Assembly: GCA_030704615.1 (NCBI GenBank)
Contig: CM060731.1
Coordinates: forward strand, 77,872,001-77,936,000
DNA length: 64,000 bases
From: Takakia lepidozioides
Taxonomy: Eukaryota > Plantae > Bryophyta
Direction: 5' to 3'
The translations under genes were made by a program, and so were the position numbers. Below the pieces are notes generated by a model that ran no database searches, had not been told where the DNA came from, and saw only the letters and a list, made by a program, of their open reading frames with translations. Position 1 is the stretch's first letter. Each line of letters starts with the position of its first letter. Positions 7,716-47,420 of the stretch are shown here, in pieces.

Positions 7716-8699
7716 AGTCTGTTCTCAACAAGCAGGTTCGTATATCTCGCACTCTTTCGATCCCTTTGCAATCAGTAGCCCAAGAAGCAGGGTACACAAG
7801 TATTGCAAAATCTAATATGATGAAACTCAAGTCCTCTATTTATAATCACACTCCAGCACAGCAACAAAGCGCTGCCTCAGATGCCCAACTTTCAGGCTTG
7901 GGAGATCTCGCGAGTGTACGCCAATGCAAAATGTGGGAGGGAGAGGATGCTCTTACAGTGGATGTGTCAATTCGAATGATGGGGGCAGATCTCAGAATCA
8001 TATATATATATGCACGTCGAGGCCATCCTCATGCTGAGATTTGACTCCCTACTGTAGACTGGCGAGTGACCAACAACGGTCTTATCATTAGGATTCTCTT
8101 TGATTGATTGAAGCCCCACCAGTATCGCTAACGAAATTTCAACGAAATTATGGTGCAAAGATCATCTTCTTAGCACCACCTGACACCACGCTCTTGACCA
8201 CATGATCGCTGCGGCTTCTGTGCGCGACACATCGTTTGACCTGCATCCTCTCTACAAGCTGGCAACACTGCATTGCAGTTGACACTACCTTTTGTGGAAA
8301 ATAGTCAAAATCCGTCGTTGTTGATGGAATTGTGATTGCTAAGATAAAGTGAGTGGGTTTGTCTCCTGTCCTCAAGCCGGGGGCTCAAATTACAGAAGAA
8401 AGACAAAAACAAATCTTCGGCCTAAAGCAAATCTCAGGGCCCTAAGCTGATCCCAAACTAATATTTCTACTTCTCTGCGACATGTTGGCTCCAAAGAGCC
8501 AGGTCTGAGCATAGATCTAAGTTAGTTAACTTTTGAACTAAGGGGCAATCTTCAGAAGACAACGGTCTAGGGGATTAGCATTGGGGGACTTATTCAGCTC
8601 GCTGTCCCTATTGGGGGGCTTATCACAGCAGTGCTGACCACACTTCTATTGAAGGTTTGCTTGAATTGATGCATTTTTTTTAAACTAAGTAATCACATC

Positions 8700-10775: not shown

Positions 10776-12139
10776 TAACGAAACAATGTATAAAGTAGTC
10801 AACGTTGCGCCATGGAAGGACTACCTACCTCCTCACATCCAGAACGATCTTCGTGGGACCACCATGTGATGGAAGATAAGCCACCATAGGAACCCCCAAA
10901 TATCCCTTCCTTGTGATACAAGACCCTGTCTTGGCCTATTCATAGTAAATGCCATTTGAGCAATCACTAGACCATTTGAGTCTATGATCACAGAAATTTG
11001 CAGGCCCAACCGTCTCTCTTTGAACCACCATACAGTGCCAGATGTGCCACCATAAGAAAAAAATAACACTAATAAATGAGGATGATAAGGTGAGTTAATT
11101 GACTCCCTAAAACTGCGCCATGATTGGTGTTGTTGATCACCATGTAATGTGCATAGCTGCACCACATTGGATAAAGAATGAACCAATACCAGGTCATCAG
11201 ACAAATGTCTTTATAATTTTAGAGATGCATTGATCGAACTAACCTGAACTCTGTACTATGGAATTATGTGGAGTTGTTACTTAACAGAATTGGAGGCTGA
11301 ATTAATTTCGTTGTGGGGCAACTTGCCGTGTCTTCAACTTGTGTGTTCAAATTACAAAATTGCAGTCACATACTCTCCCACCACACACTAGCAAACATTT
11401 GAGATCCATGCCTTGTTTATCTCTTTATACAAAAATTAGCTCCATGGCTGAAATTGCTAAGTCTAGATCAGACGAGCACTTCAGCTCATGCTTGGATTGC
11501 TACAGGAAGGAAGATAGTGGTTGCCTCTGAGAGATATCTCCCAACAACACATTGCAAATGTCCGCTTATACTTAGGTTCCATCTTTCATTGATTGATGTT
11601 ATACGCCACCGAGCTATTTGTTGGCCCACGATACATATTACTACCTGCTTACATGTGTTCTGTGAATACTAACATTTGCGTAGAGGTAAACACAAGTAGT
11701 GATTCAGATGGTGAAGTACGTAGTGATGAAGACATCTGCAGTTGAATCAATTGTCTCAATATAGTATCTATAAGCTTGAATTTTCCGAACAACTTGTGCA
11801 CATATTTGCTTTAGGCATGATATGATGTATTAGCTTTTCTAGTCTTCGTTTACTTCTAAGCATTACGAGAGTTCATTCGGGTACATGCAATAGTTTGTAT
11901 CACGATTGAAAAGTAGTCTACCTAATCACAATGACAAATCGACGACGGTATACTAGATAAGGTCCCACAGTTGTTCATCGGGCTGCTGCGATTCAATCTG
12001 AATTATGTGAGCCCAGCGACAATGTTTCGGTCTCTCCTCCAAATGTGCCTACTTCATGCAAAGAGCTCGATCATATGTAGGAAGTATTGTCACAGGCGAG
12101 CCAGTGATTTCGAGAAAAACACGTACAAGCTCCAAACCA

Positions 12140-13292
12140 TGTCGAAAATGGAAAGAAGAGACAACGATGGCAGCCATAGAGGCGATTGAAAATGGTGAAG
12201 TTGCCGCATGAAGACAATCTGGGATTCCAGAGTCCAGTATTAGAAGATGGATGTCTAGAGTTACTACTACCCAAAAATCTGGAATGAACACCGTGTTGAC
12301 AACTGAGGAAGAAAAAGAATTGGTGGAAAGGATGTTGCAGTGTCAACAGGTTGGGACGTGTCAAAAGCTTGGATGACAACAACTTTGTTTGCCGATTGGC
12401 TTTGGCATTTTCAACGTAATGTTCCTGGAGGCATATATGTCGATAATAGATATTTGCTCATTTTGGACAATTGCAGTTCTCACATATCTGCGGATGCCAT
12501 CAGCTTTGCCTCAAATGTAGGACTCGATATTCTAACAATTCCTGCATACACCTCTCACAAAATTGCAGCCTTTGTTTCTTGCTTCCATCCTTTCAAACAT
12601 TATTTCAAGCTTGAAGTTTGTTCATGATGAAGCACCACGGAGAGGTTGGAAAAGAACAGCTAGCTTCTTTGGCGAGCAAAGCACTACAGCGTGCAATGAC
12701 GGTGAATACCATTGAAATGGATTTAGGAGAACAGGCATATGGCCATTAAATCCAAATGCCTTGGATGGAGATTTTGGACCCAACGAAGATGTAGGGGCGT
12801 TGTTGTTGAGTTTGAGAGTTCCTACGAGTTCTAACGGCAGAGGGCCTTTGGATCGAGATGGTGTTGTGCATATGGATCCTTCAAATCATGTCAATGATGT
12901 TCTACGTATGAATCCTTCAAATCATGTCGATGCAGAGGTAAATGTGTTCGATGACAATGATGTATATTGACCTGACCTTTCACACTGCAGGAACCACCTG
13001 AGATGGTGATAACACGATCTTTGACAATACCATGTGTCTATCATACCCGAGTCTTTAAACCATGATTGAAGCTCCTTGTACTTTGAGTGATGGGATATGA
13101 TATGCAGACAAATACGGATACGGCAACTGTGGATCAGCCTCCTCGATTTTAAATTACTAGGAGTGCTCTACTAACTAGCTTTGAGTACCAACAACATTTG
13201 TAAAACAAGATTGAGTGAAAAGCGGCCGCTATAGCAGAGAAAGAAAAAAAAGAATCGAACGGCAGACTGTTGTTGCACAGAGAAAGATGTGT
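12140..13292 (+). pseudogene. Decayed pogo/Fot1/Tigger-like (DDE_1, CENP-B-type) transposase, interrupted by retroelement copy 1 and continuing after 24040
   Basis: HTH-psq-like N-terminus (KWKEETTMAAIEAIENG...GIPESSIRRW) and DDE_1 core (KAWMTTTLFADWL...LLILDNCSSH...IPAYTSH); multiple stops and frameshifts. Confidence 0.75.
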
Positions 13293-13480
13293 TGTCGTGC
13301 GCATACATATCGCTACACAACTACATCGCTGTCCAAAACCACACAACACATGTGCACACCACACACTAGTATACCACTAGTCCACCATTAGTCCAGCCAC
13401 TAGTCCAACCACTAGGCTACAACTAGTCAGTCACTAGGCTGCCACTATGCTGCCCACTATGGCAGTCACTAGTCCACACA
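13293..13480 (-). repeat. Terminal repeat segment A, outer copy (element 1), CCACTAG/ACTAGT-rich
   Basis: Repeated at 13806-13898 (truncated), 24332-24520 and 24860-25064. Confidence 0.85.
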
Positions 13481-13481
13481 A

Positions 13482-13803
13482 TGATAAAGAAGAAGAATAC
13501 AAGCACAAGCTCATGCGAGCTCACAAAGCTGAAGCATAAACTCATGCATATATAACCTCATCACTCAAATACAAGTCAAGCCAAGTGCACCCCACGCCAT
13601 GGGGAATCCACACTACGGCGCCATAGCTAGGCGCGGTGAGGCTCAACTCGAGAAAGATGAGCCTTCCGCGCTTGCCGTGAAGATAACCACTCCAGGGCCT
13701 AAATCTGCCTTGACCCCTGGATTGATACTTGGGCCAATCCCAAATGTCAATATATAAAAGCTAGCTATTTCCTAGCTAGTTTCACACTAGTGGGAACTTG
13801 ACA
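13482..13803 (-). repeat. Terminal repeat segment B, 3' copy (element 1)
   Basis: TGATAAAGAAG...CTTGACA, near-identical to 23714-24040. Confidence 0.92.
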
Positions 13804-13891
13804 GCTGGTCGCATACATATCGCTACACATCGCTGTCCAAAACACACAACACATGTGCACACCACACACTAATATACCACTAGTCCAGCCA

Positions 13892-16800
13892 CTAGTCCTT
13901 CTCAAGAGGTGGTGTCAAGCATCCCATATGCCAACCCCTTGAGCATCGATCACACACCAGCATGGTGGCTGCCCCTTTGGCAGACCCACAGAGCATGCAC
14001 CTCAAACCTGCAGGTACCACTGCCAAGTTTGGGTCAACTCTGCCATCGACATTGGGAAGGTGACATGGCGCACAATTACGCACATGGTCCTTCCAAGTCA
14101 TGCCATCCCGACCCTCTAAGATCAGGACCCCTGAGGGCAACACCTCTCGAACCCTCAGAATAACACGCCCTGCAGTAACATCCAGAGTCGTAGGAGCAGT
14201 CTGCTGCAAATAAACATAGTCACCAGGGCTAAACCTCCGAACCCCAGGACGATATCCTCCACCACGTATAGTGGCATACCTCAACGTATCACGGTGCTGT
14301 GCAATGGCAAGGTTCTCAAAAGCCATGGGCATGACTTTCTTGAACAACTCTGCACGCTGATCACATGCACGTACCCACACGTCCGGATCGTCAAGGTTAA
14401 GGACTTGAGCAGTGTCCCTACGAATGGCTGCAGGCAAATCCGGCTCTCGGCCAAAGAGAAGGAATATGGTGAGAAGGAGGCAAGTGATGCTTGTTTGCTG
14501 AACCTGTAGCCCATGGCTAACCAAGGAACCTGAAGATCCCAATCTCCTAGGTGTCCCTTCTGCAAGCCATACTTGCGCAAACCCCTCTTCACCGTCTGAA
14601 CAACTCTCTCTGCTAAGCCATCGGCCTCAGGATGATCCCGAGAAGTGGTGCGGTGGTCTATCAAGGCTTTATCACACAAAGCCTGAAACTCCCCCAAGAA
14701 CTCTCTCCCTTGGTCCGTGAGTACCTCAGCTGGAGCACCAAATCGGCTAAGCACACGATCCAAGAATGCATACGCAGCCCCCTCACTAGCCTTGTCAGGC
14801 AATGGAACCAACTCAATCCACTTGGAGAAGTGCTCCACCATCACCAACACATATCTGTGGTGGCGCATAGTCAGTGGCAACGGTCCTGCGAAGTCAAGAC
14901 TCCACCTGTAGCCCAATCCCATGATTGGTAAAGGATGCAACTGTGGTGTAGGGGCGTTGAATGAAGCACGCACCCTGTCACACACCATGCACCTAGCCAC
15001 AACTGTTGCACCTCTGTATGCATACCACGCCACCAATACTGCCCCCTGCAGTAAACTGTGAGTGCGTCGCACTCCAAAATGCCCCAACTCCTCATGGGCA
15101 TGCCGCACTAACCGTGCACGCTGTGTGGGGTGAGGCACAATCCTCACCCGACCATCCTCCCACACTCGAAGTAGGTGTATCCCCTCCCACTTGAACCTCT
15201 TGGCTCGTTGCAGGATCCGATCCCTCTCCCTGGCAGTCACATGGCTGCCGTGTCTCCCGTGCGGAGGTAGTCCAACACAGCCGAATCCTCATGTATATCT
15301 CTGGCACCACCTGGCTCATCACTAGCCTCAGGGTCCTCAGACACTCCGTCTACAGTCATCCCTGTTGTAGGTCCAACCTGACCTCCCGATGCCAAGATAC
15401 ACAAAAATGCAGATGCGTGCCATCCGGCACCATCTCCTCGTCCGTCTCACCATGCCACCGAGCTCCAGTGTCATCCTGCTGGCTCATGCATGGATTGCGA
15501 CTCAATCCATCCGCATCCCGATTGACCAAACCCGGTCGATGCACAACCTGAAAGTCATACTCCTGGAGTATGAGTGCCCACCGTGCAAGCTTCCCCGTAA
15601 GCTTGTCTGACTCCATCAACCACTTGAGTGGCTGGTGATCCGTGACAAGGGTGAAAAGATTGCCGTATAGATAGCACCTGAAGTGTGCCACGGCCCACAC
15701 TGCAGCTAAGCACTCTCCCTCATATGAGCTGTACTTAGCCTCTGCAGCGTTGTTCGAGCGGCTAGCATAAGCCACTACGAACTCTCTTCCCTCATCATCC
15801 ACCTGTGTGAGCACCGCTCCAAGCCCCAGCATGCTCCAATCCGTATGCAGCTGAAAGGGACGCCCCCTGATAGGTCGTCTCAGGATAGGCGCCGAGGTCA
15901 ACCTCGCCTTGAGCTCTTGAAAAGCTCGTTCCTGCTCATCTTCCCACTGCCACTCCTGGTCCACCTTGGTCAGCTTGGTTAGAGCCTTTGCAATGGTACT
16001 AAATCCCTTGACAAACCGTCTATAATAGTTTGCCAACCCCATGAAAGCTCGAACTCGGCTCACATCCGTGGGGCGTGGAATTTGTGCAATGGCCTCTACC
16101 TTAGTCTGCTGTACCCCCAATCCTCCAGGATATATCATGTGACCCAGATACTCAATCTGGTTGTGGAAAAACTTGCACTTCCCCGGATGCAACTTCAATC
16201 CGTGCGCTCTCAAGCGCTCCAATACCACCTGAAGGTGTCTCTCATGCTCCTCCATCGTAACTAAAGATGATGATGTCATCTATGTAGCACCGAGCAAAGT
16301 CCACCCTGCTAGAATCCTATCCATGACTCTCTGAAACTCTGCAGGAGCATTCTTAAGCCCAAATGGTAAGAACCGCCACTGATATAGGCAATCCTTGCCG
16401 TGCTCATTGATCCCCCAGAATGCCGTCTTCTGCTTGTCCGCCTCCTTGATTGGCAACTGGTGATATCCGGATCGTAAATCCAAAGTGCTAAAGGCCTTAG
16501 CATGCCCGATGGCATCAAAGATCTCCTCTGGTGTTGGCATGGCATACTTATCGGACTTGGTCTGACGATTTACAGGCCGGTAATCACCGCACATACGTCT
16601 CTCCGTCCAATTGCCATAGACATCCTTCTTGGCTGGCATCACTGTGGCTGAAGCATACTCTCCACCAGAGAGCTCACCAAACCTGCCTCCCAGAGATCTT
16701 GAGTCCTCATCTGAATCAAGACCTCTCCATGTCACTGTATCTATAGGGTCTCCGAAAGATTGGCGTGTCAGTGGCCAACTCAATACGGATCTCTTGACCC

Positions 16801-19800
16801 TTCAGTGCTCCCAAGTCCTTCAAACTGAAGGCAAAGCAATTCCTGTAAGCCCTCAGGAACCGCCGTATACGTCGTCTCTCTCCTCCGGTGACAATGGGTC
16901 CAATGTCAGGCTCCCAATTGTCCTCCGTAACTGCAACCTTAAGTCCAGTGGGCTTAGAGGTAGAGGACGCGTCCAGTGGTTGCTATGTTGCAACCTTGAG
17001 CAGTACTCCCTACCTGCTCAGTCAATGACAAGGCCTCATCCTGCCCCATCATCTCATCCTTGAGGACCTCCTCAACCCGAGAAGAATCCCCAACCTCATC
17101 CATCACAGCCGCCTTGGCTGCCAACTCCCTCTGAACCTCGAGCACCTCCCACGTGTGCCATGGATGCATGCACCCCGTGGTCCTCACATGCTCGCCCCCA
17201 CTCACTGCCTGTACCGTCTCGGTAGGCAGAGAGACCATTGAGGGAAGTGTACTCCGCACTCTGCGTTGCTCAGCCAGAGCCAAGCTGATAATCCAGGTCA
17301 AGCAATTGAGATCCATTGCTTGCCCCAACACTTGACGACGTGATGCCTCAGAAAGAGACGACACCGCCGTGGTACCAGTGGTAAAACCCATTGCCCGCTC
17401 ACGCTCGTCAGCATTAGGCTCCACTAACTGCTGCAACTGAGCATCCCACAGGAGGCCAGGTCCACTATCCCGGAAAGCATGCGATCCTGGGAAGCTGAGC
17501 AGTGTGTAGGTAATGCTGCTCGTGGTTGACCCACCTTGTTGACCACTGCCAAAGGCAAACGGTCATCGTGTCTCACACGCTGAGACTGCCTCCCTGTGTC
17601 CAGAATGCTATCCACTGTGAGATGTGCTGGCCGCTGCACCCCATCAAATGCACGCTTGAGCAGTGCGGGTGGCATCAAGTTAGTCCACCATAGCCGTGGA
17701 CGATGAGCCCGTGACCCCACTGTAGCTGCATCTAGCAACACTGCTGACCCAAAGCCACGACCGGACTTGATGCACACTGGCCATCACCCTGGCCCGAGAA
17801 TCGCCCATCAGTGGCACATTCTCCAAGATGTATGCTGGATACAGCTTGATGAAGCTGCAAGTGGCGCAAAACCCGCACCATCTCCCAAAACAGACCCGAC
17901 CTCGAGTCTCGCAATCCATTGCCATGCCCGGCTGATGAATGCCCTTGGCAGGGCCAACCTGCCACTACCAGATCAATGGAGCCAACCCGCTCCAAATCCT
18001 GCGCCCCAGCAATGTCTGCTGGCAAGGCCTGCTGATATCCACGAATTGCAGACACCGACAACAACTCAGGGTACGCTGCACCAACTGAGCAACATGGCGA
18101 AGTGAAACGCGTCGTGCAGTCTCATCCCTCTCCACATACAGGTAACGCCGAACTCGTACACCTGCCTGTAACACAGCAGCCAATCCGGTGCTGATCCCGC
18201 CAAACAAGTCCAGAAGACAAATGCCTTCATCCGGATACTGCCACACAATAGGTGTGGTGTCCAATGGAGACAATTGAGGTGGTCCTGGTGCAATCCCCAC
18301 ACTCTCCTCCTCTCCTGACGGTACAAAAGCCTCCACCCAGGCTTGTTGCACCCGTCGATCAGCATCCCGCTGCAAATCCTTGCTCGTGCCCCACAATGGA
18401 GTCTGAGCAACCATGGTAGGCAACTCCGCCATACCATACATGTCATCCTGCTCTCCCGGAGGTGGTACATCCTCTGAATGAGCATTGCCCTCAAGCAACT
18501 CTCTAGGCCAACTCACTGCCGCTGTGAATGCTGCTAGTGTCGGCATCTTGCCTCGCTGGGCAACCGCAACTCCTCCTATGAACGTCACAGGGAGCTGCAC
18601 ACGCCGGCCCTCCCCTGACTGCCATGCAGGCCTATAGGAAGCTGACTCCTCCCAAAAATCCAGGGTGAAGCCCATGGGGTACAACACTGCCCCACCAACC
18701 AGGACATCGTATGAGACGCGTCTGTCACAATGGCCTTGGCTCGCATCACTGAGCCATCTGTAGGGTGATCCGGCCGTAGTCTGATAGCCAACTCACGCCG
18801 TGTCATGCCCCGAGCCTGCTCCGATCCTCCAGAGACGTCTGTATCTGGAAAGGACAAGGCTCCATATCCGCCTCCGTGAGGCCCAAGCCTGCAATAGCAG
18901 CTCTGCCCAGCATCAATGGCTGAGCTCCCGAGTCCAACAAGACCCGCAGTGGCCGGTACCTCTTGCCTGCCGGTCCACTCAAACAGAAAATGCCATCCTG
19001 GTTGTCTAACATGACAACTCCAGGTGTCACCATGGCGCGCTCAATGGCTGGCCTAGCTGGCAGCTCCATCAACCTGGCAGCTGCAGCTTGCCATGGCGCC
19101 GCCGTGGCAGTCTTGACCCTCAAATCCGAGGATCCCTCCGGCACTACACCTCCCACTATCTCCGCAGAAGATGAAGTAACCTCCCCTCTCACAGAGTGTA
19201 GCTGCCAGCCTGAACACCTCAGCTGGTCTTACCCCCGGCGTCGCAATCATGGTAGCCGAGAACAATGGAGCCTGGCACACAGATGTGGCCGCTCCTAGCA
19301 GCACACTAGCTGCCGTAGCCTTGGCAACACTAGGTAGTGGTGCTACCCGTGTAGCTCTCCCCAATGGCATAGTAACCTCCGCCTCGGTAACAGTCGGGCG
19401 AGAACTAGGTGCCATGGATGGCGTCGACACTGTCTCCGCCAATGTGAATGACTGAGGAAGCCTAGCCTGACGGCTTGCCTCCCCACGCTGTGGATCCAAC
19501 TCCACCTCTGCACCTCGTGGCTCAGGAACTCGTGCTGCTCCTCGAGTCACGGCTGCAGCAGACTCCACCTGCACTAGTGGTAGTGCTGCTCCACACATGA
19601 ATCCCATGCCTCCCATATCTCCTCCCTCAGGAGCAGGAGGTGGACCATCCGGCCTTAGAGCCGGTACCACCTGAGCTGTAGCCATGGCAGCGAGCCTCTG
19701 CTCTAGCTGCTGAAGCCGGTTGGCCATGCCTTGGTCAACACCCTGACCTCCGCGTCCTTGGCCATGTTGAGCTTGCCCTTGGCCTGCACCTCGTGGCTGG

Positions 19801-20934
19801 CCACCTCGTCCTCTCTGGGCTGCTCCACCTCGCCCCCGGCCACCATTGTTCCCTTGGAACTGGCCTGGGCGCAACTCAGGATGCAAACCATAACACTGGG
19901 CCTCTCCATGCCCGTGCTTGCCACAATGCCCACACTGCAACTGTGCAGGCTGTGCATGTGCCGGCCCTTTGCCTCCCTCTGGGCAATCCTTCTTGACATG
20001 GGTCCTCCACATGTCCAGCACACCACATCCGCCCGTTGTTGGCCAGCAAATGAAGGGAGAGACCCCTGCATCTGAGGTCCTCTCTGCCCTTCCCTGAGCT
20101 TCACCTGAGCCCCTTGTTGCCTTGAGCACGTTGAGGTAGTGGTTGGCTAGGAGCACCACTACCCCGTGGTGTCTCCTTAGCAAATCCCACCATGACCACT
20201 CGTTCCTCCACCATGTTGAGCTCTATCCGCTCTGCCAGCAAAAAACACATTTGCTAAGGTGGGTTGGGCCGCTTGTAGGAGAGTTGCATCCCGCACCCTT
20301 CTCCTCAGCTCCTTGTCCAATATCCCATACCAGAATTGGACTGCCTGAGCTTCCGTAACCCCTTGGGTTACATTTATCAAGCGCCTCATGCGAGTGAAAG
20401 CCTCCCTCAAGCTCTCGGTCGGCTTCCGTTGGAACTCTTGCAAGCTCCGCAACTTCTCTGTCCTCACCCCTTGGTAGTTCCCTCTCAACTCTTCGAAGAA
20501 CTCCACAACAGGGGTTGAAGGCAGGCACGGGCTAGTGCTGGTGCGGTAGTGGCTTGGGTGGACGTCGTAGCTACTGTACCACCAGTCCCACTAGCTGCTT
20601 GCTGAAGCTGCCGGTGCAGCGGCAGGTGTAGCCACTGCCCTCGTGGCTCTAGTGCCCCTAGTGATGGAGACATAGTCGGGTGACCAGTACATCCTCCACT
20701 CCTCGATCTCAACCTCATGCCCCCGCCTGAACTCATGGTAATCATCCATAGGCGGCCCCTCAAGGTGCTGAAACAGCCCTTCCATGCCATGAAAGGCGTA
20801 AATAGTTGTGGATTGCGCATTTGCTGCAAATCACACCAACTATCAAACTCTTGGATAAAATCATCCAACTCGATGGTGCCCACCGCCCCAGAGTACCTTC
20901 GTGGCCCCTTGGTAGCTCCATACATCTCCTCCAT
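13892..20934 (-). pseudogene. Gag-Pol polyprotein of copy 1, frameshifted: Gag with two zinc knuckles (~20934-19870), aspartic protease (~19000-18600), DNMT (18225-17280), RT (~16680-16040), RNase H (~15950-15530), integrase (~15130-14450), PHD (~14010-13900, truncated)
   Basis: CWTCGGPHVKKDC and CGHCGKHGHGEAQC; VLLDSGAQ; RMCGDYRPVN, LDLRSGYHQ, LPFGLKNAP, YIDD; LHTDWS..GLGAVL, YEGECLA, TDHQPL; HEELGHFG, WSLDFAGP, LTDQGREF, GLAERVVQ; CMLC..MLVCDRC..WHMGC. Confidence 0.9.
17280..18225 (-). pseudogene. DNMT3-like C5 cytosine methyltransferase domain inside pol (copy 1)
   Basis: Motifs in canonical order: I LLDLFGGISTG, II YLYVERD, IV DLVVAGWPCQGHS, V RSGLFWEMVRVL, VI YILENV, VII-VIII DAATVGSRAHRPRLWWTN, IX ERERAMGF, X RRQVLGQAM; split over 3-4 reading frames. 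Confidence 0.9.
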
Positions 20935-21839
20935 TGTGTCCCACAACAATGGCAAAGAAACAACTTGCACCGCCGGTATGAGTCCTCCTGATTCACAATC
21001 CGAATCAGAACCTTCCGTAGAAGACACAGGAGGTGAAGGTGGCCTAAACCGCACACCTCGTCTCGTGTACCCACTAGTATCGCTAGTGCTCGAACCGGCA
21101 CTGTCCCCAGCAACTAGTGGCACCTCCGTGTTGACACTCAACCGGTCATGAACATGTCCTAACCCCCTCTCCACAAGGTAACCGGGTAGAGAACCTTTGC
21201 GGCTTATGGTTTGGAATACTAAGTTCCTAACATAGCCTACACTGTACCTGCATCCACCGCAAGCACTCCTATGGTTGGCTGGTCATCACCTCCAACCTCA
21301 CCACAGGAGAAACAATGATGGTCTGGCTGGTCATCACCCCAGCCTCACCATCGACAGCATGCTCTAGGACTGGCCGGTGATCAAATCCGGACCAATCACC
21401 TATAAAAACAAGCGCCCACACAAAACTAGCATGGCGCACAGTCAAGCATGCAGGTATGGAGGGGATCCAAACACAAGAAATCAGAACGACAACTCCCCCA
21501 CACCAAAAACAACTCCACGGTGTTGCTCCTGCAAGGACACCCCAGCCCAAACCCGGACTGACTCTTGCCTCCACCTACGGAAAGGTCTTGGCCTAATGAG
21601 AGGGTGGAAACTACGAGGAAGAGAAGCTAAAGCAATGCCTAACCCCAGCATGCCCTCATCCCAACACTCTCTTCCCTCACTTGCATGACCATGGGAATAT
21701 CATGAAGATACTCCTCAAACCGCCCTCCACGAGCTTCAAAATTCGGCCTTCAAGACCACATGCCAGTCCTTAGGCAGTCCACCAGTGCCTCCACGAGTCA
21801 GCACAGGCCGTCCACAGGTCAACACGGGCCACCACAGAC

Positions 21840-22200
21840 CAGCACAGGCCCACACAGCTCACTGGTCACAGCCGTCACAGTCACACAGGTCACACACACA
21901 CAGCACAGCCCGTCACACCCACACACATTTCACAGTCACAGCCCCACACACACACAGCCCCTCACAGTTTCACAGCCCCAAAGGCCTCCTGTCACAGCCC
22001 TCACAGCCCGTCACAGGCCTGCCTGTCACAGGTTGTTCACAGCCCGTCACAGCCCCACAGGCCACTTCACAGCCCGTTCATTTGCCTTTCCCTTCACAGC
22101 CTGTCACAGAGCCCGTCACAGCCCCACAGGCCTGCCCACAGCCCCTCACAGCCCCTCACAGCCCCGCCACACAGCCTGTCACAGGCCCCACAGGCCACTC
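21840..22200. repeat. Degenerate CACAGCC(C/T)GT tandem array in the long 5' leader of copy 1
   Basis: Dozens of cacagccc/gtcacag units. Confidence 0.85.
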
Positions 22201-23697
22201 ATGCAGTTTAGCCATTTCTCCAAGGGGTTTAGCCACGCCAAGCTAGGGTTTGTGTCTCTTGGACTCTAGGCTTCTTTCCACCGAGCTATGGCGGCTGTGA
22301 GGAAATCAGCAAGGTATTCTTGCTCTTTCGGCTCCCACACACCACCATAGTAGCCCTAAGCCATGAGGTGGTTGCCACAAACCAAGCCTTCTTTCTCACT
22401 TAGCCTCCCCAAACACGCCACTAAACTCAATGGCAAACAACCAAGCCCTGCTGGTTCCCAGCCCTTGTGAGCACTCATTCAAGCACTCTCCTTGGCCATA
22501 GCATCTGTCTTAGAGCCTATTCCAGCCCCCTACACCTGCTGCTTCAAGAGTTGCGCTCCCTTCAAGCTTGAAGTTGAAACCCCAACTCACATAGGCCCTA
22601 CAAGTGCTTTTCTTTCACTCCAAGTGGAAACCAGCCCTAGACCTTCCGTTCTAGCTCTCTAAAGCTTGAAAACAAGAGCCTCAATGGGCTGAAGGCATGC
22701 TCCACACATGCCCCACTCTCACCATAAGAGAATCAGCTCCTTTGCTTCATTTCTTGCACCCACAACCTGAAAATACAAGCTTCAGCAGGCTGAAAGCATG
22801 CTCACATGCCCTACAGGGAAACCAGCCCCTTCCTTCCTTTCTTGCACTCCCAACCTGAAAGTGCAAGCCTTCACCAGGCTGATAGCATGCTCCACACATG
22901 CATTGCCTCACATAAGGGAAGTACAGCCCTTCCCTCTTCCTTGCTTGCCCTCCAAGCTTGAAGATGGCTCTTCAATGAGCTGAATACATGCTCCACACAT
23001 GCAACCTCTTCACACAAGAGATATCAGCCCCCTATCTTGGCTCCTTGGCTCCTTGATGCTCTCTAAGACAAGACTAAGCACTCCACAGCATTTGCCAAGC
23101 TCCTGAAACCCTAGCTTACATTTCCAGCCACAAGACACTTCTCTTGTGTGCAAGAGCTCTTCTTCCAAGCTCTGAAACCCTAGGTGCACATTCCATGGCC
23201 TTGCCGCACCTCTTAGCTCCTGTTCCAGCCCTGCTCTTGCCATGACAAGAGCCCTCTCAATGCTGAAGCTCGAGATTGAAACCCAATCTCACCATACTCC
23301 ACAAAGTGCACTGATTTGCCCCAAGCCAAATCAGCCCTTTCGCTTGGTCTTGCAATCCTTCACACAATGAAAGCTCGCATTCCCCAGTCCAGTTCTCAGC
23401 TTTGCCACCAAAGCCACTATAACCTGCTCTTGACTGGTCCTCTTCCCAATCGTGCTTGCTCATGCATGTACACAATCTGAAACCATCAAGGTGCTTTGGA
23501 ATTACGTGCAGCATGATGCTTTCATCTCTGAAGCTGAAATCGAATGCCAAGGTCTACCACCTCGTAACCCACATCGCCTCTGCTTCTAACAACCAAGAGC
23601 TCCACGGTGCTCTTTGCATAACAACTTGGTTTCTCTCATTCTCAAGCAAAAACCACAAGTGCTACAACTAACTCGTATGTGGCACTTACAGATACGA

Positions 23698-23714
23698 GCT
23701 CATCTTTCTCGAGT
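23698..23714 (-). promoter_or_regulatory. PBS-position sequence complementary to the element's own LTR (putative self-priming site), copy 1
   Basis: gctcatctttctcgagt (23698-23714) is the exact reverse complement of actcgagaaagatgagc (23878-23894); no TGG tRNA-type PBS next to the repeat. Confidence 0.7.
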
Positions 23715-24040
23715 GATAAAGAAGAAGAATACAAGCACAAGCTCATGCGAGCTCACAAAGCTGAAGCATAAACTCATGCATATATAACCTCATCACTCAA
23801 ATACAAGTCAAGCCAAGTGCACCACACGCCATGGGGAGTCCACACTACGGCGCCATAGCTAGGCGCGGTGAGGCTCAACTCGAGAAAGATGAGCCTTCCG
23901 CTCTTGCCGTGAAGATAACCACTCCAGGGCCTAAATCTGCCTTGACCCTTGGATTGACACTTGGGCCAATCCCAGATGTCAATATGTAAAAGCTAGCTAT
24001 TTCCTAGCTAGTTTCACACTAGTGGTAAAATAACTTGACA
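23714..24040 (-). repeat. Terminal repeat segment B, 5' copy (element 1)
   Basis: Sense TGTCAAG...CTTTATCA; matches 13482-13803. Confidence 0.92.
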
Positions 24041-25064
24041 GTGTTGTCAAAGAGACCAAGGCATTGGCCAAATTAGAAGAAAATAAGTTCGAACCTTTGG
24101 TATGCTCAGCAAGATCTCATCTTTGTCAAAATTTTCAAGGCACAAGTGTTGCCGATAGATGCATACAGACCAAAATCGCTACCGAGTTCTGTAGAAGCCA
24201 CGAATGCTAGAGCCCTTCGTATCCAGAAGATGAAATTGCATCGATCAAGGATCAGTGAGGTAGGATAAGAGAAATGTTTCAAAGCTTGACTCTTTCTTGT
24301 GACATTAATCTGGATTGAATTTTCATGATCGTGTCGTGCGCATATATATCGCTACACAACTACATCGTTGTCCAAACCACACAACATATGTGCACACCAA
24401 ACACTAGTCTATCACTAGTGCACCACTAGGCTGCCACTAGACAACCACTTGTCACCACTAGTGCAGCCACTACTCCAACACTAGGCTGCCATTAGCCACC
24501 ACTAGTGCAGCCACTAGTCCATCCAAATAAATAAAGAAGAATACAAAACAAGCTCATGCGAGCTCACAAAGCTGAAGCATAAACTCATGCATATATACCT
24601 CTCACTCATCATCAAATACAAGTCAAGCCAAGTGCACCCCACGCCATGGGGAATCCACACTACGGCGCCATAGCTAGGCGCGGTGAGGCTCAACTCGAGA
24701 AAGATGAGCCCACCGCGATTTGCCGTGAAGATAACAACGTCAGGTGCCCAAACATGTATTGGCCCCTGAATTGACACTTGGGTCAATCCCAAATGTCAAT
24801 ATATAAAAGCTAGCTATTTCCTAGCTAACTTCACACTAGTGGTAAAATAACTTGACAACTGTCGTGCGCATACATATCGCTACACAACTACATCGCTGTC
24901 CAAACCACACAACTTATGTGCACACCAAATACTAGTCTATCACTAGTGCACCACTAGTGCACCACTAGGCTGCCACTAGACAACCACTAGCCACCACTAG
25001 TGCAGCCACTAGTCCAACACTAGGCTGCCATTAGCCACCACTAGGCTGCCACTAGTCTATCACA

Positions 25065-25076
25065 ATCGCCCCCCTA
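25065..25076 (-). promoter_or_regulatory. Putative polypurine tract (sense TAGGGGGGCGAT) immediately before the TGTG start of the inner A repeat
   Basis: plus-strand atcgcccccct abutting the A copy ending at 25064; deleted in copy 1. Confidence 0.55.
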
Positions 25077-25324
25077 GCTGGCGCTTAGGTCCCTCTAAGT
25101 CCAGGTAGCCACAAGATGTGATAGTGGCCATAGCCTCACTAAGTCCTCCACCATTGTCCCTACTACACTCAAACTCAATAGATCAAGAGGCCGGGTACAA
25201 GAGTTGCCCCATCGTTAGTCGTCGTCTTGCAATCTGTGAACTTGAGCCCGAGATCTTGGGTATTGACTCCTATGAGCTTGGCCTCCCATGTCTTGTGAGC
25301 TGCCACTAGTCATATCCACTGCCA

Positions 25325-28300
25325 CTATCCCAAGCAGTGTGGACATAACCAATCTCCATCAGGAACCCTCTCAAGAGGTGATGTCAAGCATCCCATGTGC
25401 CAACTTCTTGAGCATCGATCACACACCAGCATAGTAGCGGCACCACGAGCATGCCCACATAGCATGCAACGCAATCCTGCAGGTACCACTACAAGGTTGG
25501 GATCTATCCTCCCATCCACATGTGGAAGGTGACATGGCGCACAATTACGCACATGGTCCTCCATACCATGCCATCTCGACCCTCCAGAATCAACACTCCT
25601 GAAGGCAACACCTCCTTGACCCTTAGAATCACACGTCTTACTGTGACATCCAAGGTTGTAGGCGCCGTTTGCTGCAAATACACATAGTCCCCAGGGTGAA
25701 AACGCCGAACACCTGGCCGATATCCCCCTCCACGTATAGTGGCATACCTCAATGTGTCTCGGGTTGGGCAATAGCAAGATTCTCAAAAGCCATAGGCATG
25801 ACTCTCTTGAACAACTCTGCCCGCTGGGCACATGCTTGTGTCCACACATTCGGATCATCAAGGTTGAGGACTACTGCAGCCTCCCTGCGAATAGACGTAG
25901 GCAAATCTGGCTCTCGGCCAAAGAGAAGGAAATATGGTGAGAAAGAGGCAAGTGATGTTTGCTTGCTAAACTTGTAGCCCATGGCTAGCCAAGGTACCTG
26001 AAGATCTCAATCTCCTAGGTGTCCTTTTTGCAAGCCATACTTGCGCAAACCCCTCTTCACTGTCTGCACCACTCTCTCTGCCAAGCCATCGGCCTCAGGA
26101 TGATCCCGAGAAGTGGTACGGTGGTCTATCAAGGCTTTATCACACAAAGCCTGAAACTCCCCCAAGAACTCTCTCCCTTGGTCCGTGAGTACCTCAGCTG
26201 GAGCACCGAATCGGCTAAGCACACGATCCAGGAATGCATACGCAGCCCCCTCACTAGCCTTGTCAGGCAATGGAACCAACTCAATCCACTTGGAGAAGTG
26301 CTCCACCATCACCAACACATATCTGTGGTGACGCATCGTCAGTGGCAAGGCCCTGCGAAGTCAAGACTCCACCTGTGCCCAATCCCATGATGGTAAAGGA
26401 TGCAATTTGTGTGTAGGGGCGTTGAATGAAGCACGCACCTTGTCACACACCATGCACCTAGCCACAAACTATTGCACCTCTGTGTGCATACCATGCCACC
26501 AATACTGCCCCTACAGTAAACTATGAGTGCGTCGCACTCCAAAATGCCCCAACTCCTCATGGGCATGCCACACTAACTGTGCACGCTGTGTTGGGTGAGG
26601 CACGATCCTCACCCAACCATCCTCCCACACTCGAAGCAGGTGTATCCCCTTCCACTTGAACCTCTTGGCTTGTTGTAGGATCCGATCCCTCTCCTTGGCA
26701 GTCACACTAGCTGCCGTGTCTCTAGTGCGGAGGTAGCCAACACAACCGAATCCTCATGTATATCTCTGGCACCACCTGACTCATCACTAGCCTCAGGGTC
26801 CTCAGACACTCCATCTACAGTCATCCTTATTGTAGGTCCAACCTGACCTCCCGATGCCAAGATACACAAAAAGACAGATGCATGCCATCCCGGCACATCT
26901 CCTTGTCCGTCTCACCATGCCACCGAACTCCAGTGTCATCCTGCTGGCTCGTGCATGGATTGCGACTCAATCCATCCGCATCCCTATTGACCAAACCTGG
27001 TCGATGCACTACCTGAACATGTCTCTCATGCTCCTCCACCGTAGCACGAGAGACAAAGCAATTCCTGTAAGCCTCAGGAACCGCCGTATACGTCGTCTCT
27101 CTCCTCTAGTGACAATAGTCCAATGTCAGGCTCCCAATTGCCCTTTGTAACTGCAACCTTAAGTCCAGCAGACTTAGAGGTAGAGGACGCGTCCCGTTGC
27201 TATGCCGCAACCTCTTGAGCAGTACTCCCTACATGTTCAGTCAATGACAAGGCCTCATTGCCCCATCATCTCATCCTTGAGGACCTCCTCAACCCGAGAA
27301 GAATCCCCAACCTCATCCATCACAGCCGCCTTGGCTGCCAACTCCCTCTGAACCTCGAGCACCTCCCACATGTGCCATGGATGCATGCACCCCGTGGTCC
27401 TCACATGCTCGCCCCCACTCACTGCCTGTACCGTCTCGGTAGGCAGAGAGACCATTGAGGGAAGTGTACTCCGCACTCTGCGTTGCTCAGCTAGAGCCAA
27501 GCTGATAATCCAGGTCAAGCAACTGGAGATCCATTGCTTGCCCCAAGACTTGACGAGTGATGCCTCAGAAAGAGACGACACCGCCGTGGTACCAGTGGTA
27601 AAACCCATTGCCCGCTCACGCTCGTTCAGCATTAGGCTCCACAACTGCTGCAACTTAGCATCCCACAAGAGGCCAGGTCCACTATCCCGGAAAGCATGCG
27701 ATCCTGGGAAGCTGAGCAGTGTAGGTAATGCTGCTCGTGGTTGACCCACCTTGTTGACCACTGCCAAAGGCAAACGGTCATCGTGTCTCACACGCTGAGA
27801 CTTGCTCCCTATGTCCAAAATGCTATCCACTGTGAGGTGTGCTAGCCGCTGCACCCCATCAAATGCACGCGTTAAGCAGTGCGGGTGGCATCAAGTTAGT
27901 CCACCATAACCGTGGACGATGAGCCCGTGACCCCACTACAGCTGCATCCAGCAACATTGCTGACCCAAACCACGACCGGACTTGATGCACACTGGCCATC
28001 ACCTGGCCCGAGAATCGCCCATCAGTGGCACATTCTCCAAGATGCATGCTGGACATACAGCCTGATGAAGCTGTAAGTGGCGCAAAACCCGCCCCATCTC
28101 CCAAAACAGACCCGACCTCGAGTCTCGCAATCCATTGCCATGCCCGGCTAATGAATACCCTTGGCAGGGCCAACCTGCCACTATCAAATCAATGAAGCCA
28201 ACCCGCTCCAAATCCTGCGCCTCTAGCAAGAGAATGTCTGCTGGCAAAGGCCTGCTGATATCCACGAACCGTAGACACCGACAACAACTCAGGGTACTGC

Positions 28301-31172
28301 TGCACCAACTGAGCAATATGACGGAGTGAGACGCGTCGTGCAGTCTCATCCCTCTCCACATACAAGGTAGCCGAACTCGTAGACCTGCTTGTAATACAGC
28401 AGCCAATCCGGTGCGGATCCCGCCAAACAAGTCCAGGAGACAAATGCCTTCATCCAGATACTGCCACACACAGGTGTGGTGTCCAATGGAGACAATTGAG
28501 GTGGTCCTGGTGCAATCCCCACACTCTCCTCCTCTCCTGATGGTACAAAAGCCTCCACCCAGGCTTGTTGCACCCGTCGATCAGCATCCCGCTGCAAATC
28601 CTTGCTCGTGCCCCACAATGGAGTCTGAGCAACCATGGTAGGCAACTCGCCATTACCATACATGTCATCCTGCTCTCCCGGAGGTGGTACATCCTCTGAA
28701 TGAGCATTGCCCTCAAGCAACTCTCTAGGCCAACTCACTGGCGTGAATGCTGCTAGTGGTCGGCATCTTGCCTCGCTGGGCAATCGCAACTCCTCATATG
28801 AACGTCACAGGGAGCTGCACGCGCCGGCCCTCCCCTGACTGCGATCAGGCCTATAGGAAGCTGACTCCTCCCAAAATCCAGGGTGAAAGCCCATGGGGTA
28901 CAACACTGCCCACCAACCAGGACATCGTATGAGACTGCGTCTGTCACAATGGCCTTGGCTCGCATCACTGAGCCATCTATAGGGTGATCCGGCCGTAGTT
29001 TGATAGCCAACTCACGCCGGTGCAATGCCCCGAGCCTGCTCCGATCCTCCCTGAGACGTCTGTATCTGGAAAGGACAAGGCTCCATATCCGCCTCCGTGA
29101 GGCCCAAGCCTGCAATAGCAGCTCTGCCAGCATCAATGGCTGAGCTCCCGAGTCCAACAAGACCCGCGTGGCCGTACCTCTTGCCTGCCGGTCCACTCAA
29201 ACAGAAATGCCATCCTGGTTGTCTAACATGACAACTCCAGGTGTCACCATGGCGCGCTCAATGGCTGGCCTAGCTGGCAGGCTCCATCAACCTGCAGCTG
29301 CAAAGCTTGCCCATGGCGCCGCCGTGGCAGTCTTGACCCTCAAATCCGAGGATCCCTCCGGCACAACACTCCCACTATCTTCCGCAGAAGAATGAAGTAA
29401 CCTCCCCACTCTCACAGATGTTGTAGCGAGCTTGAACACCTCACTTTGTTTTACCCCCGGCGTCGCAATCATGGTAGCCGAGAACAATGGAGCCTGACAC
29501 ACAGATGTGGCGCTCCTAGCAGCACACTAGCAGCCGCCAGCCTTGGCAACACTAGGTAGTGGTGCTACACGTGTAGCTCTCCCCCAATGCATAGTAACCT
29601 CCGCCTCGGTAACGTACCGTCAGGGCGAAACTAGGTGCCATGGATGGCGTCGACACTGTCTCCGCCAATGTGAATGACTGAGGAAGCCTAGCCTGACGGC
29701 TTGCCTCCCCACGCTGTGGATCCAACTCCACCTCTGCACCTCGTGGCTCAGGAACTCGTGCTGCTCCTCGAGTCACGGCTGCAGCAGACTCCACCTGCCT
29801 AGTGGTAGTGTCTGCTGCCACACATGAATCCCCATGCCTCCCATATCTCCTCTCTCAGGAGCAGGAGGTGGACCATCCGGCCTTAGAGCCGTTACCACCC
29901 TGAAGCTGTAGCCATGGCAGCGAGCCTCTGCTCCAGCTGCTGAAGCCGGTTGGCTAGGCCTTGGTCAACACCCTGACCTCCGCGTCCTTGGCCACGTTGA
30001 GCTTGCCCTTTGGCCTGCACCTCGTGGCTGGCCACCTCGTCCTCTCTGGGCTGCTCCATCTCGCCCCCGGCCACCATTGTTCCCTTGGAACTGGCCTGGG
30101 CGCAACTCAGGATGCAAACCATAACACTGGCCTCTCCATGCCCGTGCTTGCCACAATGCCCACACTGCAACTGTGCAGGCTGTGCATGTCCGACCCTTGC
30201 CTCCTTCTGGGCAATCCTTCTTGACATGGGGTCCTCCTTATGTCCAGCACACCACCTCTGCCTGTTGTTGGCCAGCAAATGAAGGGAGAGACCCCTGCAT
30301 CTGAGGTCCTCTCTGCCCTTCCCTGAGCTTCACCTGAGCCCGTTGTTGCCTTGAGCACGTTGAGGTAGTGGTTGGCTAGGAGCACCACTACCCCGTGGTG
30401 TCTCCTTAGTAAATCCCACCATGACCACTCGTTCCTCCACCATGTTGAGCTCTATCCGCTCTGCGAGCAAAAACACATTTGCTAAGGTGGGGTTGGGGCC
30501 GCTTGTAGGAGAGTTGCATCCCGCACCCTTCTCCTCAGCTCCTTGTCCAATATCCCATACCAGAATTGGACTGCCTGAGCTTCCGTAACCCCTCGGGTTA
30601 CATTTATCAGCGCTCATGCGAGTGAAAGCCTCCCTCAAGCTCTCGGTCGGCTTCCGTTGGAACTCTTGCAAGCTCCGCAACTTCTCTGTCCTCACCCCTT
30701 GGTAGTTCCCTCTCAACTCTTCGAAGAACTCCACAACAGGGTTGAAGGCAGGCACGGGTACTAGTGCTGGTGCGGTAGTGGCTTGGGTGGACGTCGTAGC
30801 TACTGTACCACCAGTCCCACTAGTTCCACTGCTACTTGCTGAAGCTGCCGGTGCAGCGGCAGGTGTAGCCACTGCCCTCGTGGCTCTAGTGCCCCTAGTG
30901 ATGGAGACATAGTCGGGTGACCAGTACATCCTCCACTCCTCGATCTCAACCTCATGCCCCCGCCTGAACTCATGGTAATCATCCATAGGCGGCCCCTCAA
31001 GGTGCTGAAACAGCCCTTTCCATGCCATGAAAGGTGTAAATAGTAGTGGATTGCGCATTTGCTGCAAATCACACCAACTATCAAACTCTTGGATAAAATC
31101 ATCCAACTCGATGGTGCCAACCGCCCCGGAGTACCTTCGTGGCCCCTTGGTAGCTCCATACATCTCCTCCAT
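25325..31172 (-). pseudogene. Gag-Pol of copy 2, heavily frameshifted: Gag, protease, DNMT (~28450-27500), RT/RH remnant (~27060-26950), integrase, complete PHD (~25480-25330)
   Basis: Colinear with copy 1; LLDLFGG, DLIVAGWPCQG, ILENV, RPRLWWTN, ERERAMGF; PHD CMLCGHARGAATMLVCDRCSRSWHMGCLTSPLERVPDGDWLCPHC-LG-stop. Confidence 0.88.
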
Positions 31173-32124
31173 TGTGTCCCACAACAATGGCAAGGAAACA
31201 ACTTGCACCGCCGGTATGAGTCCTCCTGATTTACAATCCAAATCAGAACCTTTCGTAGAAGACACAAGAGGTGAAGGTGGCCTAAACCGCACACCTCATC
31301 TCGTGTACCCACTAGTATCGCTAGTGCTCCAACCGGCACTGTCCCCAACAACTAGTGGCACCTCCGTGTTGACAAACTGTCACTCAACTGGTCATGAACA
31401 TGTCCCTAACCCCCTCTCCACAAGGTAACCGGGTAGAGAACCTGTTGCAGCTTATGGTTTGGAATACTAGGTTCCTAACATAGCCTACACATGTACCTGC
31501 ATCCACCGCAAGCACTCCTATGGTTGGCTGGTCATCACCTCCAGCCTCACCACAGGAGAAACAATGATGGTCTGACTGGTCATCACCCTAGCCTCACCAT
31601 CGACAGCATGCTCCAGGACTGGCCGGTGATCCAATCCGGACCAATCACCTATAAAAACAAGCGCCCACACAAAACTAACATGGCGCACAGTCAAGCATGC
31701 AAGTATGGAGGGGATCCAAACACAAGAAATCAAAACGACAACTCCCCCATACCAAAAACAACTCCACGGTGTTGCTCTTGCAAGGACACCCCAGCCCAAA
31801 CCCGGACTGACTCTTGCCTCCACCTACGGAAAGGTCTTGGCCTAATGAGAGGGTGAAAAACTACGAGGAAGAGAAGCTAAGGCAATGCCTAACCCCAGCA
31901 TGCCCTCATCCCAACACTCTTCATCTCCTCTCTTCCCTCACTTGCATGACCATGGGAATATCATGAAGATACTCCTCAAACCGCCCTCCACGAGCTTCAA
32001 AATTCGGCCTTCAAGACCACATGCCAGTCCTTAGGCAGTCCACCAGTGCCTCCACGAGTCAGCACAGGCCATCCACAGGTCAACACGGGCCACCACAGAC
32101 CAGCACAGGCCCACATAGCTCACT

Positions 32125-32580
32125 AGTCACAGCCGTCACAGCCCCACACAGGCCACAGCCTGTCACAGCCCTACACAGGTTACAGGGTCACAGCCCCACA
32201 GGCCGCAGCTTGTCACAGCCCGTCACAGCCCCAAAGGCCACATGCCACAGCCTGTCACAGCCCATCACAACCCCAAAGGCCACAGGCACAGCCTGTCACA
32301 GCCCTACACAGGTTACAGGGTCATAGCCCCACAGGCCGCAGCTTGTCACAGCCCGTCACAGCCCCAAAGGCCACATGCCACAGCCTGTCACAGCCCATCA
32401 CAACCCCAAAGGCCACAGGCACAGCCTGTCACAGCCTGTCACAGCCCTACAAAGGTCAGAGGGTCACAGCCCCAAAGGCCACAGCCCGTCACAACCCCAC
32501 AGGCCATAGAGCACAGCCTGTCACAGCCCACCACAGTCTGTCACAGCCCATCACAGCCCGTCACAGCCCCACATGCCACT
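32125..32580. repeat. CACAGCC-based array in leader of copy 2 with a 133-bp higher-order duplication (32168-32300 / 32301-32433)
   Basis: gccctacacaggttacagggtc... unit recurs at 32168 and 32301. Confidence 0.85.
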
Positions 32581-34108: not shown

Positions 34109-34438
34109 TGATAAAGAAGAAGAATACAAGCACAAGCTCATGCGAGCTCACAAAGCTGAAGCATAAACTCATGCATATATAACCTCATCACTCAAATACA
34201 AGTCAAGCCAAGTGCATCCCACGCCATGGGGAATCCACACTAAGGCGCCATAGTTAGGCACGGTGAGGCTCAACTCGAGCAAGATGAGCCCACTGCGATC
34301 TGTCGTGAAGATAACAACGTCAGGTGCCCAAACATGTATTGGCCCCCTGGATTGACACTTGGGTCAATCCCAAATGTCAATATATAAAAGCTAGCTATTT
34401 CCTAGCTAACTTCATACTAGTGGTAAAATAACTTGACA
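34109..34438 (-). repeat. Terminal repeat segment B, 5' copy (element 2)
   Basis: TGATAAAGAAG...CTTGACA; shares diagnostic variant (ataacaacgtcaggtgcccaaacatg) with the B copy ending at 24857. Confidence 0.92.
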
Positions 34439-47011: not shown

Positions 47012-47420
47012 GTGGCCTGTTCACCCATCTCCAAGTTCCGATTCAGGATTAATAAGGTGTCAGAAAATGAATGCAAGTTGGACTCGCAAACACAACCATC
47101 ATATCCTTGGGGAAGTTTTGGGGTCTCCCTTGGCCCTCCCCGTCTTCCGTCCTTCCTTGGAAAAGTAAATCAAGAGCTCCACTGCCCGGCCAGAACAATA
47201 AATTCTCCAACACACACAATTACCGGTGAAGCATTCATCTATCAATAGACATCGAGATGAACTTGAGTTGTGGCCCAATCCTTGAGGCACCTTTGCCCCC
47301 GAAAAGTAAGCCCTGAGAGAATGCAGCATCAACTTAGAACCTAGACGTTTTATACTTGTTTCAAGATTGAGCCATAATTATCATGTATCTCCTTGTCATG
47401 ATTGCGAGGGGTGTACTAAC

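Follow-up and report, generated by a model that had tools for sequence, protein, structure and literature searches.

The window, a stretch of 64,000 nucleotides from the bryophyte Takakia lepidozioides (NCBI GenBank assembly GCA_030704615.1, contig CM060731.1, positions 77,872,001 to 77,936,000), carries on its minus strand two related retroelements that are 92% identical over 7.4 kb and are separated by 291 bp (Table 1). Host genes for a lipoxygenase and a phospholipase D are located on either side of them. An exon of the latter is closest in identity to mosses (59% Ceratodon, 58% Sphagnum), with liverworts at 53–56% and two long angiosperm models (45–48% identity) on top when ranked by score; by this exon the host is a land plant and likely a moss. 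Also present are a dual-specificity phosphatase exon, a DNA transposase remnant about 670 bp from copy 1 and a short dispersed repeat, possibly a MITE family.

Both copies start with TG and end with CA. Because their target-site duplications differ, they represent separate insertions; a single tandem unit with a shared LTR is ruled out, as each copy has its own duplication. The domain order in copy 1 is Gag, protease, methyltransferase (hereafter DNMT), reverse transcriptase (RT), RNase H, DDE integrase and PHD, while a deletion between 27017 and 27051 has removed RT along with most of RNase H from copy 2. The element is a Ty3/Gypsy-type retrotransposon: the order protease-RT-RNase H-DDE integrase is present in copy 1 and in intact relatives, and the termini fit this type as well, with TG...CA ends and 4-bp target-site duplications in the window and a duplication CATA in the related locus L050. 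No tyrosine recombinase family, the hallmark of DIRS/PAT-like elements, occurred among the 20 ORFs scanned, which have an rve and H2C2 integrase instead, and the second ORF of loci L041 and L038 gave no chromodomain match, a PHD finger being found there. In the long 5′ leader of both copies there are short tandem repeats rich in CACAG, as well as an array of ~100-bp units.

Table 1. Features of the window and of the element ends compared with it
Feature	Position	Strand	Remarks
Host lipoxygenase gene	2206-6940	-	PLAT and Lipoxygenase domains; several exons
DDE_1 (pogo-like) transposase remnant	12071-12627	+	
Element, copy 1	13293-24040	-	TG...CA ends; 4-bp target-site duplication ACAC; frameshifted
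3′ end, copy 1	13293-13896	-	B1 13810-13896, junction, A2 13482-13803, B2 13293-13481
Feature 3′ of integrase, before B1, copy 1	13898-13999	-	
DDE integrase, copy 1	14380-15261	-	H2C2 zinc finger and rve core
RT and RNase H, copy 1	15428-16930	-	
Conserved stop TAG with CAA CCA, copy 1	16977-16985	-	stop 16983-16985; ends Gag-protease-DNMT; predicted readthrough site; predicted long stem 3′
DNMT3-like C5-cytosine methyltransferase domain, copy 1	17251-18246	-	all motifs; four frame breaks
Motif X RRQVLGQ, copy 1	17320-17340	-	
Motif IX ERERAMGF, copy 1	17383-17406	-	
Motif VIII RAHRPR, copy 1	17694-17711	-	
Motif VI ILENV, copy 1	17815-17829	-	
Motif IV GWPCQG, copy 1	17942-17959	-	
Motif I LDLFGG, copy 1	18196-18213	-	
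Aspartic protease, copy 1	18690-19040	-	active-site LLDSG 18926-18940
Gag, copy 1	19900-20934	-	capsid-like part and zinc knuckles; weak Retrotrans_gag match (E 4e-4)
5′ leader repeats, both copies	21689-22270, 32104-32580; 22626-23030, 32979-33421	-	short CACAG-rich tandem repeats; array of ~100-bp units
17-nt site directly after A1, copy 1	23698-23714	-	exact complement of 23878-23894 inside A1; primer-site-like
Repeat A1, 5′ end, copy 1	23714-24040	-	itself TG...CA; 96% identical to A2
Element, copy 2	24332-34438	-	TG...CA ends; target-site duplication CGAT; split repeats as in copy 1
Stop TAG CAA, copy 2	27197-27202	-	stop 27200-27202; homologous place
DNMT3-like domain, copy 2	27470-28470	-	all motifs; at least six frame breaks
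Same motif set, copy 2	27538-28436	-	
Host phospholipase D gene	37180-47020	-	C2 exon 46025-47020; PLD_C 37183-37593
Short dispersed repeat	43143-43358, 45382-45467, 56446-56656	both	
Dual-specificity phosphatase exon	59503-60108	-	
Split-repeat ends compared	13293-13896, 24332-25061 (window); L050:14544-15112; L003:14534-14957		

Three of four read runs from the host covered every one of the 30 bins of copy 1 (depth being no measure of copy number), and the DNMT bins reached a depth similar to that of the gag bins; the element family is abundant in the host. Observed/expected ratios of CpG and CHG showed no difference between the element and its flanks, and these flat ratios teach nothing about self-methylation.

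Split repeats at the ends

The term LTR retrotransposon, used in an earlier note on this DNA, does not describe the ends, where there is no plain LTR pair and split direct repeats are found instead. In the window copies these are arranged as A1-body-B1-A2-B2, with the target duplication outside B2, and the same B-A-B end occurs in loci L050, L032 and L018. The terminal nine bases, CGCACGACA, are common to the window and a peat-moss-type family, the repeats being otherwise unalignable. Split repeats of this kind may go unnoticed by LTR finders that look for a terminal pair.

The sequence directly after A1 of copy 1 is complementary to a part of A1 itself over 17 nt. Three further loci (L029, L031 and L032, the last at L032:1679-2037) have a 17-nt complement of other sequence in the same place, which was recovered in 0 of 300 shuffles for each; in other loci the complement after A1 measures 6–11 nt, and the A2 copies, with B2 behind them, have none. 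By-eye inspection revealed no evident tRNA-type primer site after A1. The occurrence of the 17-nt pairing in two families with different sequence suggests, by analogy, Tf1-like self-priming. At the B1-A2 junction, L003 and host contigs have CA-GC-TG and copy 2 has CA-GT-TG, as though a right and a left end had been fused across the two bases that integrase would trim. For these features of the DIRS-like ends (the 17-nt pairing and the CA-GC-TG-type junction) we found no description in the literature searched, which was mostly open-access.

The methyltransferase domain and its family

The domain scored 41.3 bits in copy 1 and 46.8 bits in copy 2 against PF00145, for which the cut-off is 22 bits, in agreement with the DNA_methylase assignment proposed earlier. 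The catalytic residues named in that proposal are likewise retained in motifs IV (PC), VI (ENV) and VIII (RxR), and one frame (17965-18792) does connect the protease C-terminus with motif I. The motifs follow the unpermuted, canonical order in both copies; their position between protease and RT holds for copy 1, copy 2 being without RT. What cannot be upheld is that the window carries a complete enzyme, since the domain is intact in neither copy: copy 1 shifts frame near 18074, 17838, 17751 and 17503, copy 2 does so at least six times, and 15 gaps and 40 mismatches separate the two across the DNMT. These breaks may reflect decay or assembly error. Many contigs of other copies have an indel difference at three of the four DNMT breaks of copy 1, which implies that the latter are not common to the whole family.

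A family profile built from 22 aligned domains matched DNMT3A best among solved structures (E 9e-26), followed by DNMT3B/C (~1e-22), DRM (2e-15) and M.HhaI (1e-8). When the predicted model of a natural relative, P0010 (pLDDT 93.5), was submitted to Foldseek, the top matches listed were all DNMT3 (TM 0.70). VIA aligned the same model with DNMT3B (Z 28.9, rmsd 2.8, 279 aligned) and M.MpeI (Z 25.6), and with DRM2 at Z 9.7 over its N-terminal part only (residues 1-144). Judged by its unpermuted motifs, its sequence and its predicted fold, the domain is therefore of the DNMT3 type and not of the DRM type, as the earlier note had recognized. Across all 22 aligned domains, no variation occurs at the catalytic Cys, the EN pair or the two Arg of RxR. 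Motif IV reads EC rather than PC in 64 of the 146 domains in which it was matched; PC is kept in the window and in 29 of 33 matched class I domains.

The DNMT domain is under purifying selection, dN/dS being 0.07–0.16 for seven of the eight pairs of related loci compared; among these seven, the pair with least saturation gave 0.14. The remaining pair consists of decayed copies and gave 0.37 for DNMT and 0.34 for RT, and all three comparisons involving the window copies were saturated. The dN/dS check proposed in the earlier note thus came out on the side of selection in the relatives.

At E<=1e-30, the family profile recovered 575 clusters (50% identity), of which the best 150 were examined. 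The named homologs come from Marchantia polymorpha, Calypogeia fissa, Sphagnum fallax, Klebsormidium nitens, Closterium sp. NIES-68 and Scenedesmus sp. PABB004; no vascular plant is among the named matches, which are the minority. The element had been put forward as one of land plants, where it is indeed present; it is not specific to them, belonging to a large family that reaches green algae. A scan of phage contigs yielded, among the matches listed, only distant methyltransferases (best E 1e-20, 34% identity over part of the domain). Many homologs in M. polymorpha are labelled hypothetical, and five have a Gag-protease-DNMT ORF of 1278–1281 aa; full-length examples are Mp4g09160, Mp5g06330, Mp5g06860 and MpVg00370. 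Four homologs lie on the male V chromosome of this liverwort, namely MpVg00370 (P0284), MpVg00540 (P0285), MpVg00480 (P0289) and MpVg00690 (P0286), two of them with a full-length ORF1.

The 212 domain-bearing proteins comprise 40 that end after protease-DNMT, 116 with the order RNase H-DNMT-integrase, 11 that continue from DNMT into RT and 45 too short to be classed. Five of the 11 are plant gene models, from Marchantia and Sphagnum, in which the fusion is probably due to predicted introns; the other six are metagenome ORFs without a stop. The second architecture, RT-RNase H-DNMT-integrase-PHD in one ORF (P0088 of Scenedesmus sp. PABB004, L049, L059, L068 and others), is the commonest order among the matches, often has EC in motif IV, and has Scenedesmus as its sole named member. 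A PHD finger closes the integrase in both architectures. At L054:1753-2889, a partial element without DNMT adjoins a 99.8% identical one with DNMT; its lack of the domain may reflect truncation or an error of assembly.

In a FastTree phylogeny of 95 near-full DNMT domains, which omits half of the second class as well as ten redundant or aberrant models, includes no host DNMT3 and is rooted on six phage methyltransferases, the protease-DNMT elements formed one clade with a support of 0.95 relative to this distant outgroup. Klebsormidium, Closterium, the bryophytes and the window belong to this clade; P0003, also a protease-DNMT protein, falls outside it. The RT tree grouped the protease-DNMT class as well (support 1.0). 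RT and DNMT distances are correlated (Mantel r 0.75 over 67 elements, 0.60 within the second class), and because kin share their history, this correlation reflects joint inheritance and not function.

The stop codon behind the methyltransferase

A single Gag-PR-DNMT-RT-RH-INT-PHD ORF, as envisaged in the earlier note, is ruled out for the lineage of the window by its intact relatives, which have two in-frame ORFs with one conserved stop between them. In L041, ORF1 (976-5085; protease, DNMT) is followed in the same frame by ORF2 (5086-8229; RT, RNase H, integrase, PHD), and the junction is the same in L038, L005 and L003. The domain belongs to the element's own coding sequence, as proposed; rather than lying inside a Gag-Pol polyprotein, it closes a Gag-protease-DNMT ORF that ends at the stop.

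The context of this stop was surveyed in 47 of 80 metagenome loci, those having this order and enough downstream DNA. The pattern TAR-CAR-YYN occurred 190–400 nt past the DNMT in 40 of the 47 loci, as compared with 34 of 428 background windows, and two loci have the sense codon TAC at the stop site. Among the 40, the contexts were TAG CAA CCC (21), TAA CAA CCC (12), exact TAG-CAR-YYA (6) and TAG CAA CCT (1). The commonest one, CAA CCC (33/40), lacks the last A of the TMV consensus, to which window copy 1 and the most divergent intact loci fit exactly. CAR-YY is kept behind the stop while the neighbouring codons diverge. Because most of the 47 loci represent one peat-moss-type family from overlapping metagenomes, they are not independent, and the independent evidence for the stop comes from about four lineages: the window, the peat-moss-type family, L005, and L038/L041/L042/L078. 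A long stem starting ~10 nt 3′ of the stop is predicted in most loci, with z < -2 in only 5 of 13 folds. In ORF2 of L041 and L078, the first Met is residue 117, past the start of conserved RT sequence; an early Met is present in ORF2 of L017 and L038.

UAG followed by CAR-YYA is the readthrough signal of TMV, with ~10% readthrough (PMC2754532; here and below, published work is cited from the accessible portions of each paper). In Tca2, the context of the gag-pol stop by itself gave no readthrough, and the junction had promoter activity (PMC2194720). By analogy with the tobamovirus signal, we infer readthrough of this type at the stop, which would place DNMT at the level of Gag and the capsid, with RT and integrase reaching a fraction of this.

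Enzyme supply and comparison with known systems

The reading towards which we lean, with modest confidence, is that the Gag-protease-DNMT ORF with its predicted leaky stop yields a capsid-level DNMT that likely methylates the cDNA in the particle before integration. The Gag-protease-DNMT product would assemble the particle, with DNMT co-assembling with Gag and likely being freed by the protease, and a minority of ribosomes would read through the stop to supply RT, RNase H, integrase and PHD. With the putatively leaky stop behind DNMT, many enzyme copies per particle are predicted, and this abundant enzyme could methylate the element cDNA prior to insertion; the new copy might then look like host DNA, or have its chromatin state set. 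The conserved stop in this way leads to a sharp prediction on enzyme dosage. Evidence against such a scheme comes from the six metagenome ORFs that pass from DNMT into RT without a stop and from the 116 of 212 proteins with DNMT between RNase H and integrase, which imply that capsid-level supply is not needed family-wide.

The latter order also bears on an alternative we consider unlikely, in which an active enzyme travels with the integrase-PHD complex and has chromatin as its target during or after integration, where it would methylate the new copy or the flanking DNA. The position of DNMT directly before integrase in those 116 proteins and the PHD reader closing the integrase in both architectures would fit such a role; in the lineage of the window, however, DNMT lies before the stop, together with Gag, and ~1.5 kb of RT-RNase H coding sequence separates it from the integrase. 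It is more doubtful that the domain is retained as a nucleic acid binder or a structural part of the particle and is no working DNA methyltransferase. The Klebsormidium domain did not methylate in yeast (PMC5890265), and the frequent EC in motif IV points in the same direction, but human DNMT3B failed in the same test, the residues Cys, EN and RxR are invariant, and PC is kept in the window and in nearly all matched class I domains.

Slightly more doubtful again is that the stop is a true end and that RT-RNase H-integrase is made from a spliced or separately started mRNA, an arrangement under which DNMT would still be at Gag level. Such a possibility is raised by the imperfect consensus in most loci, the promoter activity at the Tca2 junction (PMC2194720) and the early Met in ORF2 of L017 and L038; against it stand the frame kept across the stop in intact loci of divergent clades, the conservation of CAR-YY amid diverging codons, and the lack of a usable early Met in L041 and L078. 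Finally, that the domain is a recently captured passenger undergoing neutral decay in a few copies, as the frameshifts in both window copies might suggest, is highly improbable, being contradicted by RT congruence and purifying selection and at odds with the 575 clusters (the best 150 examined) and the several full-length ORFs in Marchantia.

Beyond the preferred reading of capsid-level supply, we propose more tentatively, as a possible rather than a probable history, that a single DNMT3-like enzyme was retained all through one Gypsy lineage, from chlorophytes to mosses and liverworts, and shifted between two positions there. The bryophyte branch of this lineage would have a tobamovirus-type leaky stop and a capsid-level DNMT pre-methylating new copies, and would be self-primed, with both ends rebuilt from the internal CA-GC-TG junction. 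Why retrotransposons keep an enzyme of the silencing class has been an open question since 2018, when the sole green-lineage example was algal and inactive in yeast. As M. polymorpha, a genetic model, has full-length Gag-protease-DNMT ORFs, the question is testable there.

Accounts of land-plant copies, of the stop or of the second architecture were not found in the literature searched, which was mostly open-access, and such land-plant elements go unmentioned in the accessible portions of Walker, Yaari, the Chlamydomonas v6 paper, a chromatin-evolution preprint and PMC11982613. Two later papers say 'streptophytes' citing PMC5890265, and their trees or supplements could include bryophyte sequences. 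The DNMT survey table in PMC5890265 gives nine DNMT genes for Physcomitrella and ten for Selaginella and has no Marchantia or Sphagnum row; elements of the present kind could inflate such counts in bryophyte genomes. Host DNMT3 proteins (PpDNMT3b, MpDNMT3b = Mp5g09290) belong to the same catalytic family and perform de novo methylation in non-seed plants (PMC6453930, 10.1101/2021.02.12.428880), but they are cellular genes with a plant-specific extra domain, and the host DNMT3 of K. nitens is multi-exonic (PMC5890265). The Marchantia element loci (e.g. Mp4g09160, Mp8g17980), named hypothetical, are other genes than Mp5g09290.

Several known systems share single traits with the Takakia element. 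In MuLV, Tca2, SIRE1 and tobamovirus, two ORFs are likewise separated by one in-frame stop, followed by CAR-YY (PMC2754532, PMC2194720); the stop of the Takakia element comes after protease and DNMT and not directly after Gag. Tf1/Sushi elements and the plant Tcn1 chromoviruses, whose hosts include mosses, resemble it in their predicted self-priming without a tRNA primer site, but are set apart by domain content, having a chromodomain where the Takakia element has a PHD finger, DNMT and split repeats (PMC6317226). A cytosine DNMT is also carried by the EpiLTRs of Cymbomonas and Euglena, which are LTR elements with a DNMT4-sister clade enzyme, DAM and a chromodomain, stated to be distinct from streptophyte Gypsy-DNMT3 (bioRxiv 10.64898/2026.05.21.726589). 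SymbioDIRS-Dnmt3 carries a retroelement-borne DNMT3, as here, for which de novo CG methylation was shown in yeast; unlike the Takakia element, it is a dinoflagellate DIRS with a tyrosine recombinase and was treated as an independent capture (PMC5890265).

The closest precedent is KnitGypsy-Dnmt3 of Klebsormidium nitens, described by de Mendoza et al. in 2018 (PMC5890265); the earlier note, which had named a DNMT-bearing retrotransposon from this alga, was right. Its enzyme gave no methylation in yeast, a result that the authors called inconclusive. In the accessible portion of their paper, neither a stop or readthrough behind DNMT nor a self-priming-like site nor a second architecture is described. 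They regarded the element as an acquisition of the K. nitens lineage located in the Pol ORF, whereas the Takakia element resides in a land plant and its DNMT is ~38% identical. K. nitens KFL_013780020, a homolog, has the protease-DNMT order and an ORF that ends six residues past the DNMT; in the FastTree phylogeny above it groups with the window in the 0.95-support clade. KnitGypsy-Dnmt3 combines Gypsy domains, an unpermuted intronless DNMT3 and DIRS-type repeats (Fig. 4c legend, PMC5890265), and as Gypsy domains, an intronless DNMT3 and DIRS-like repeats are all found here, the Takakia element is of this already known kind.
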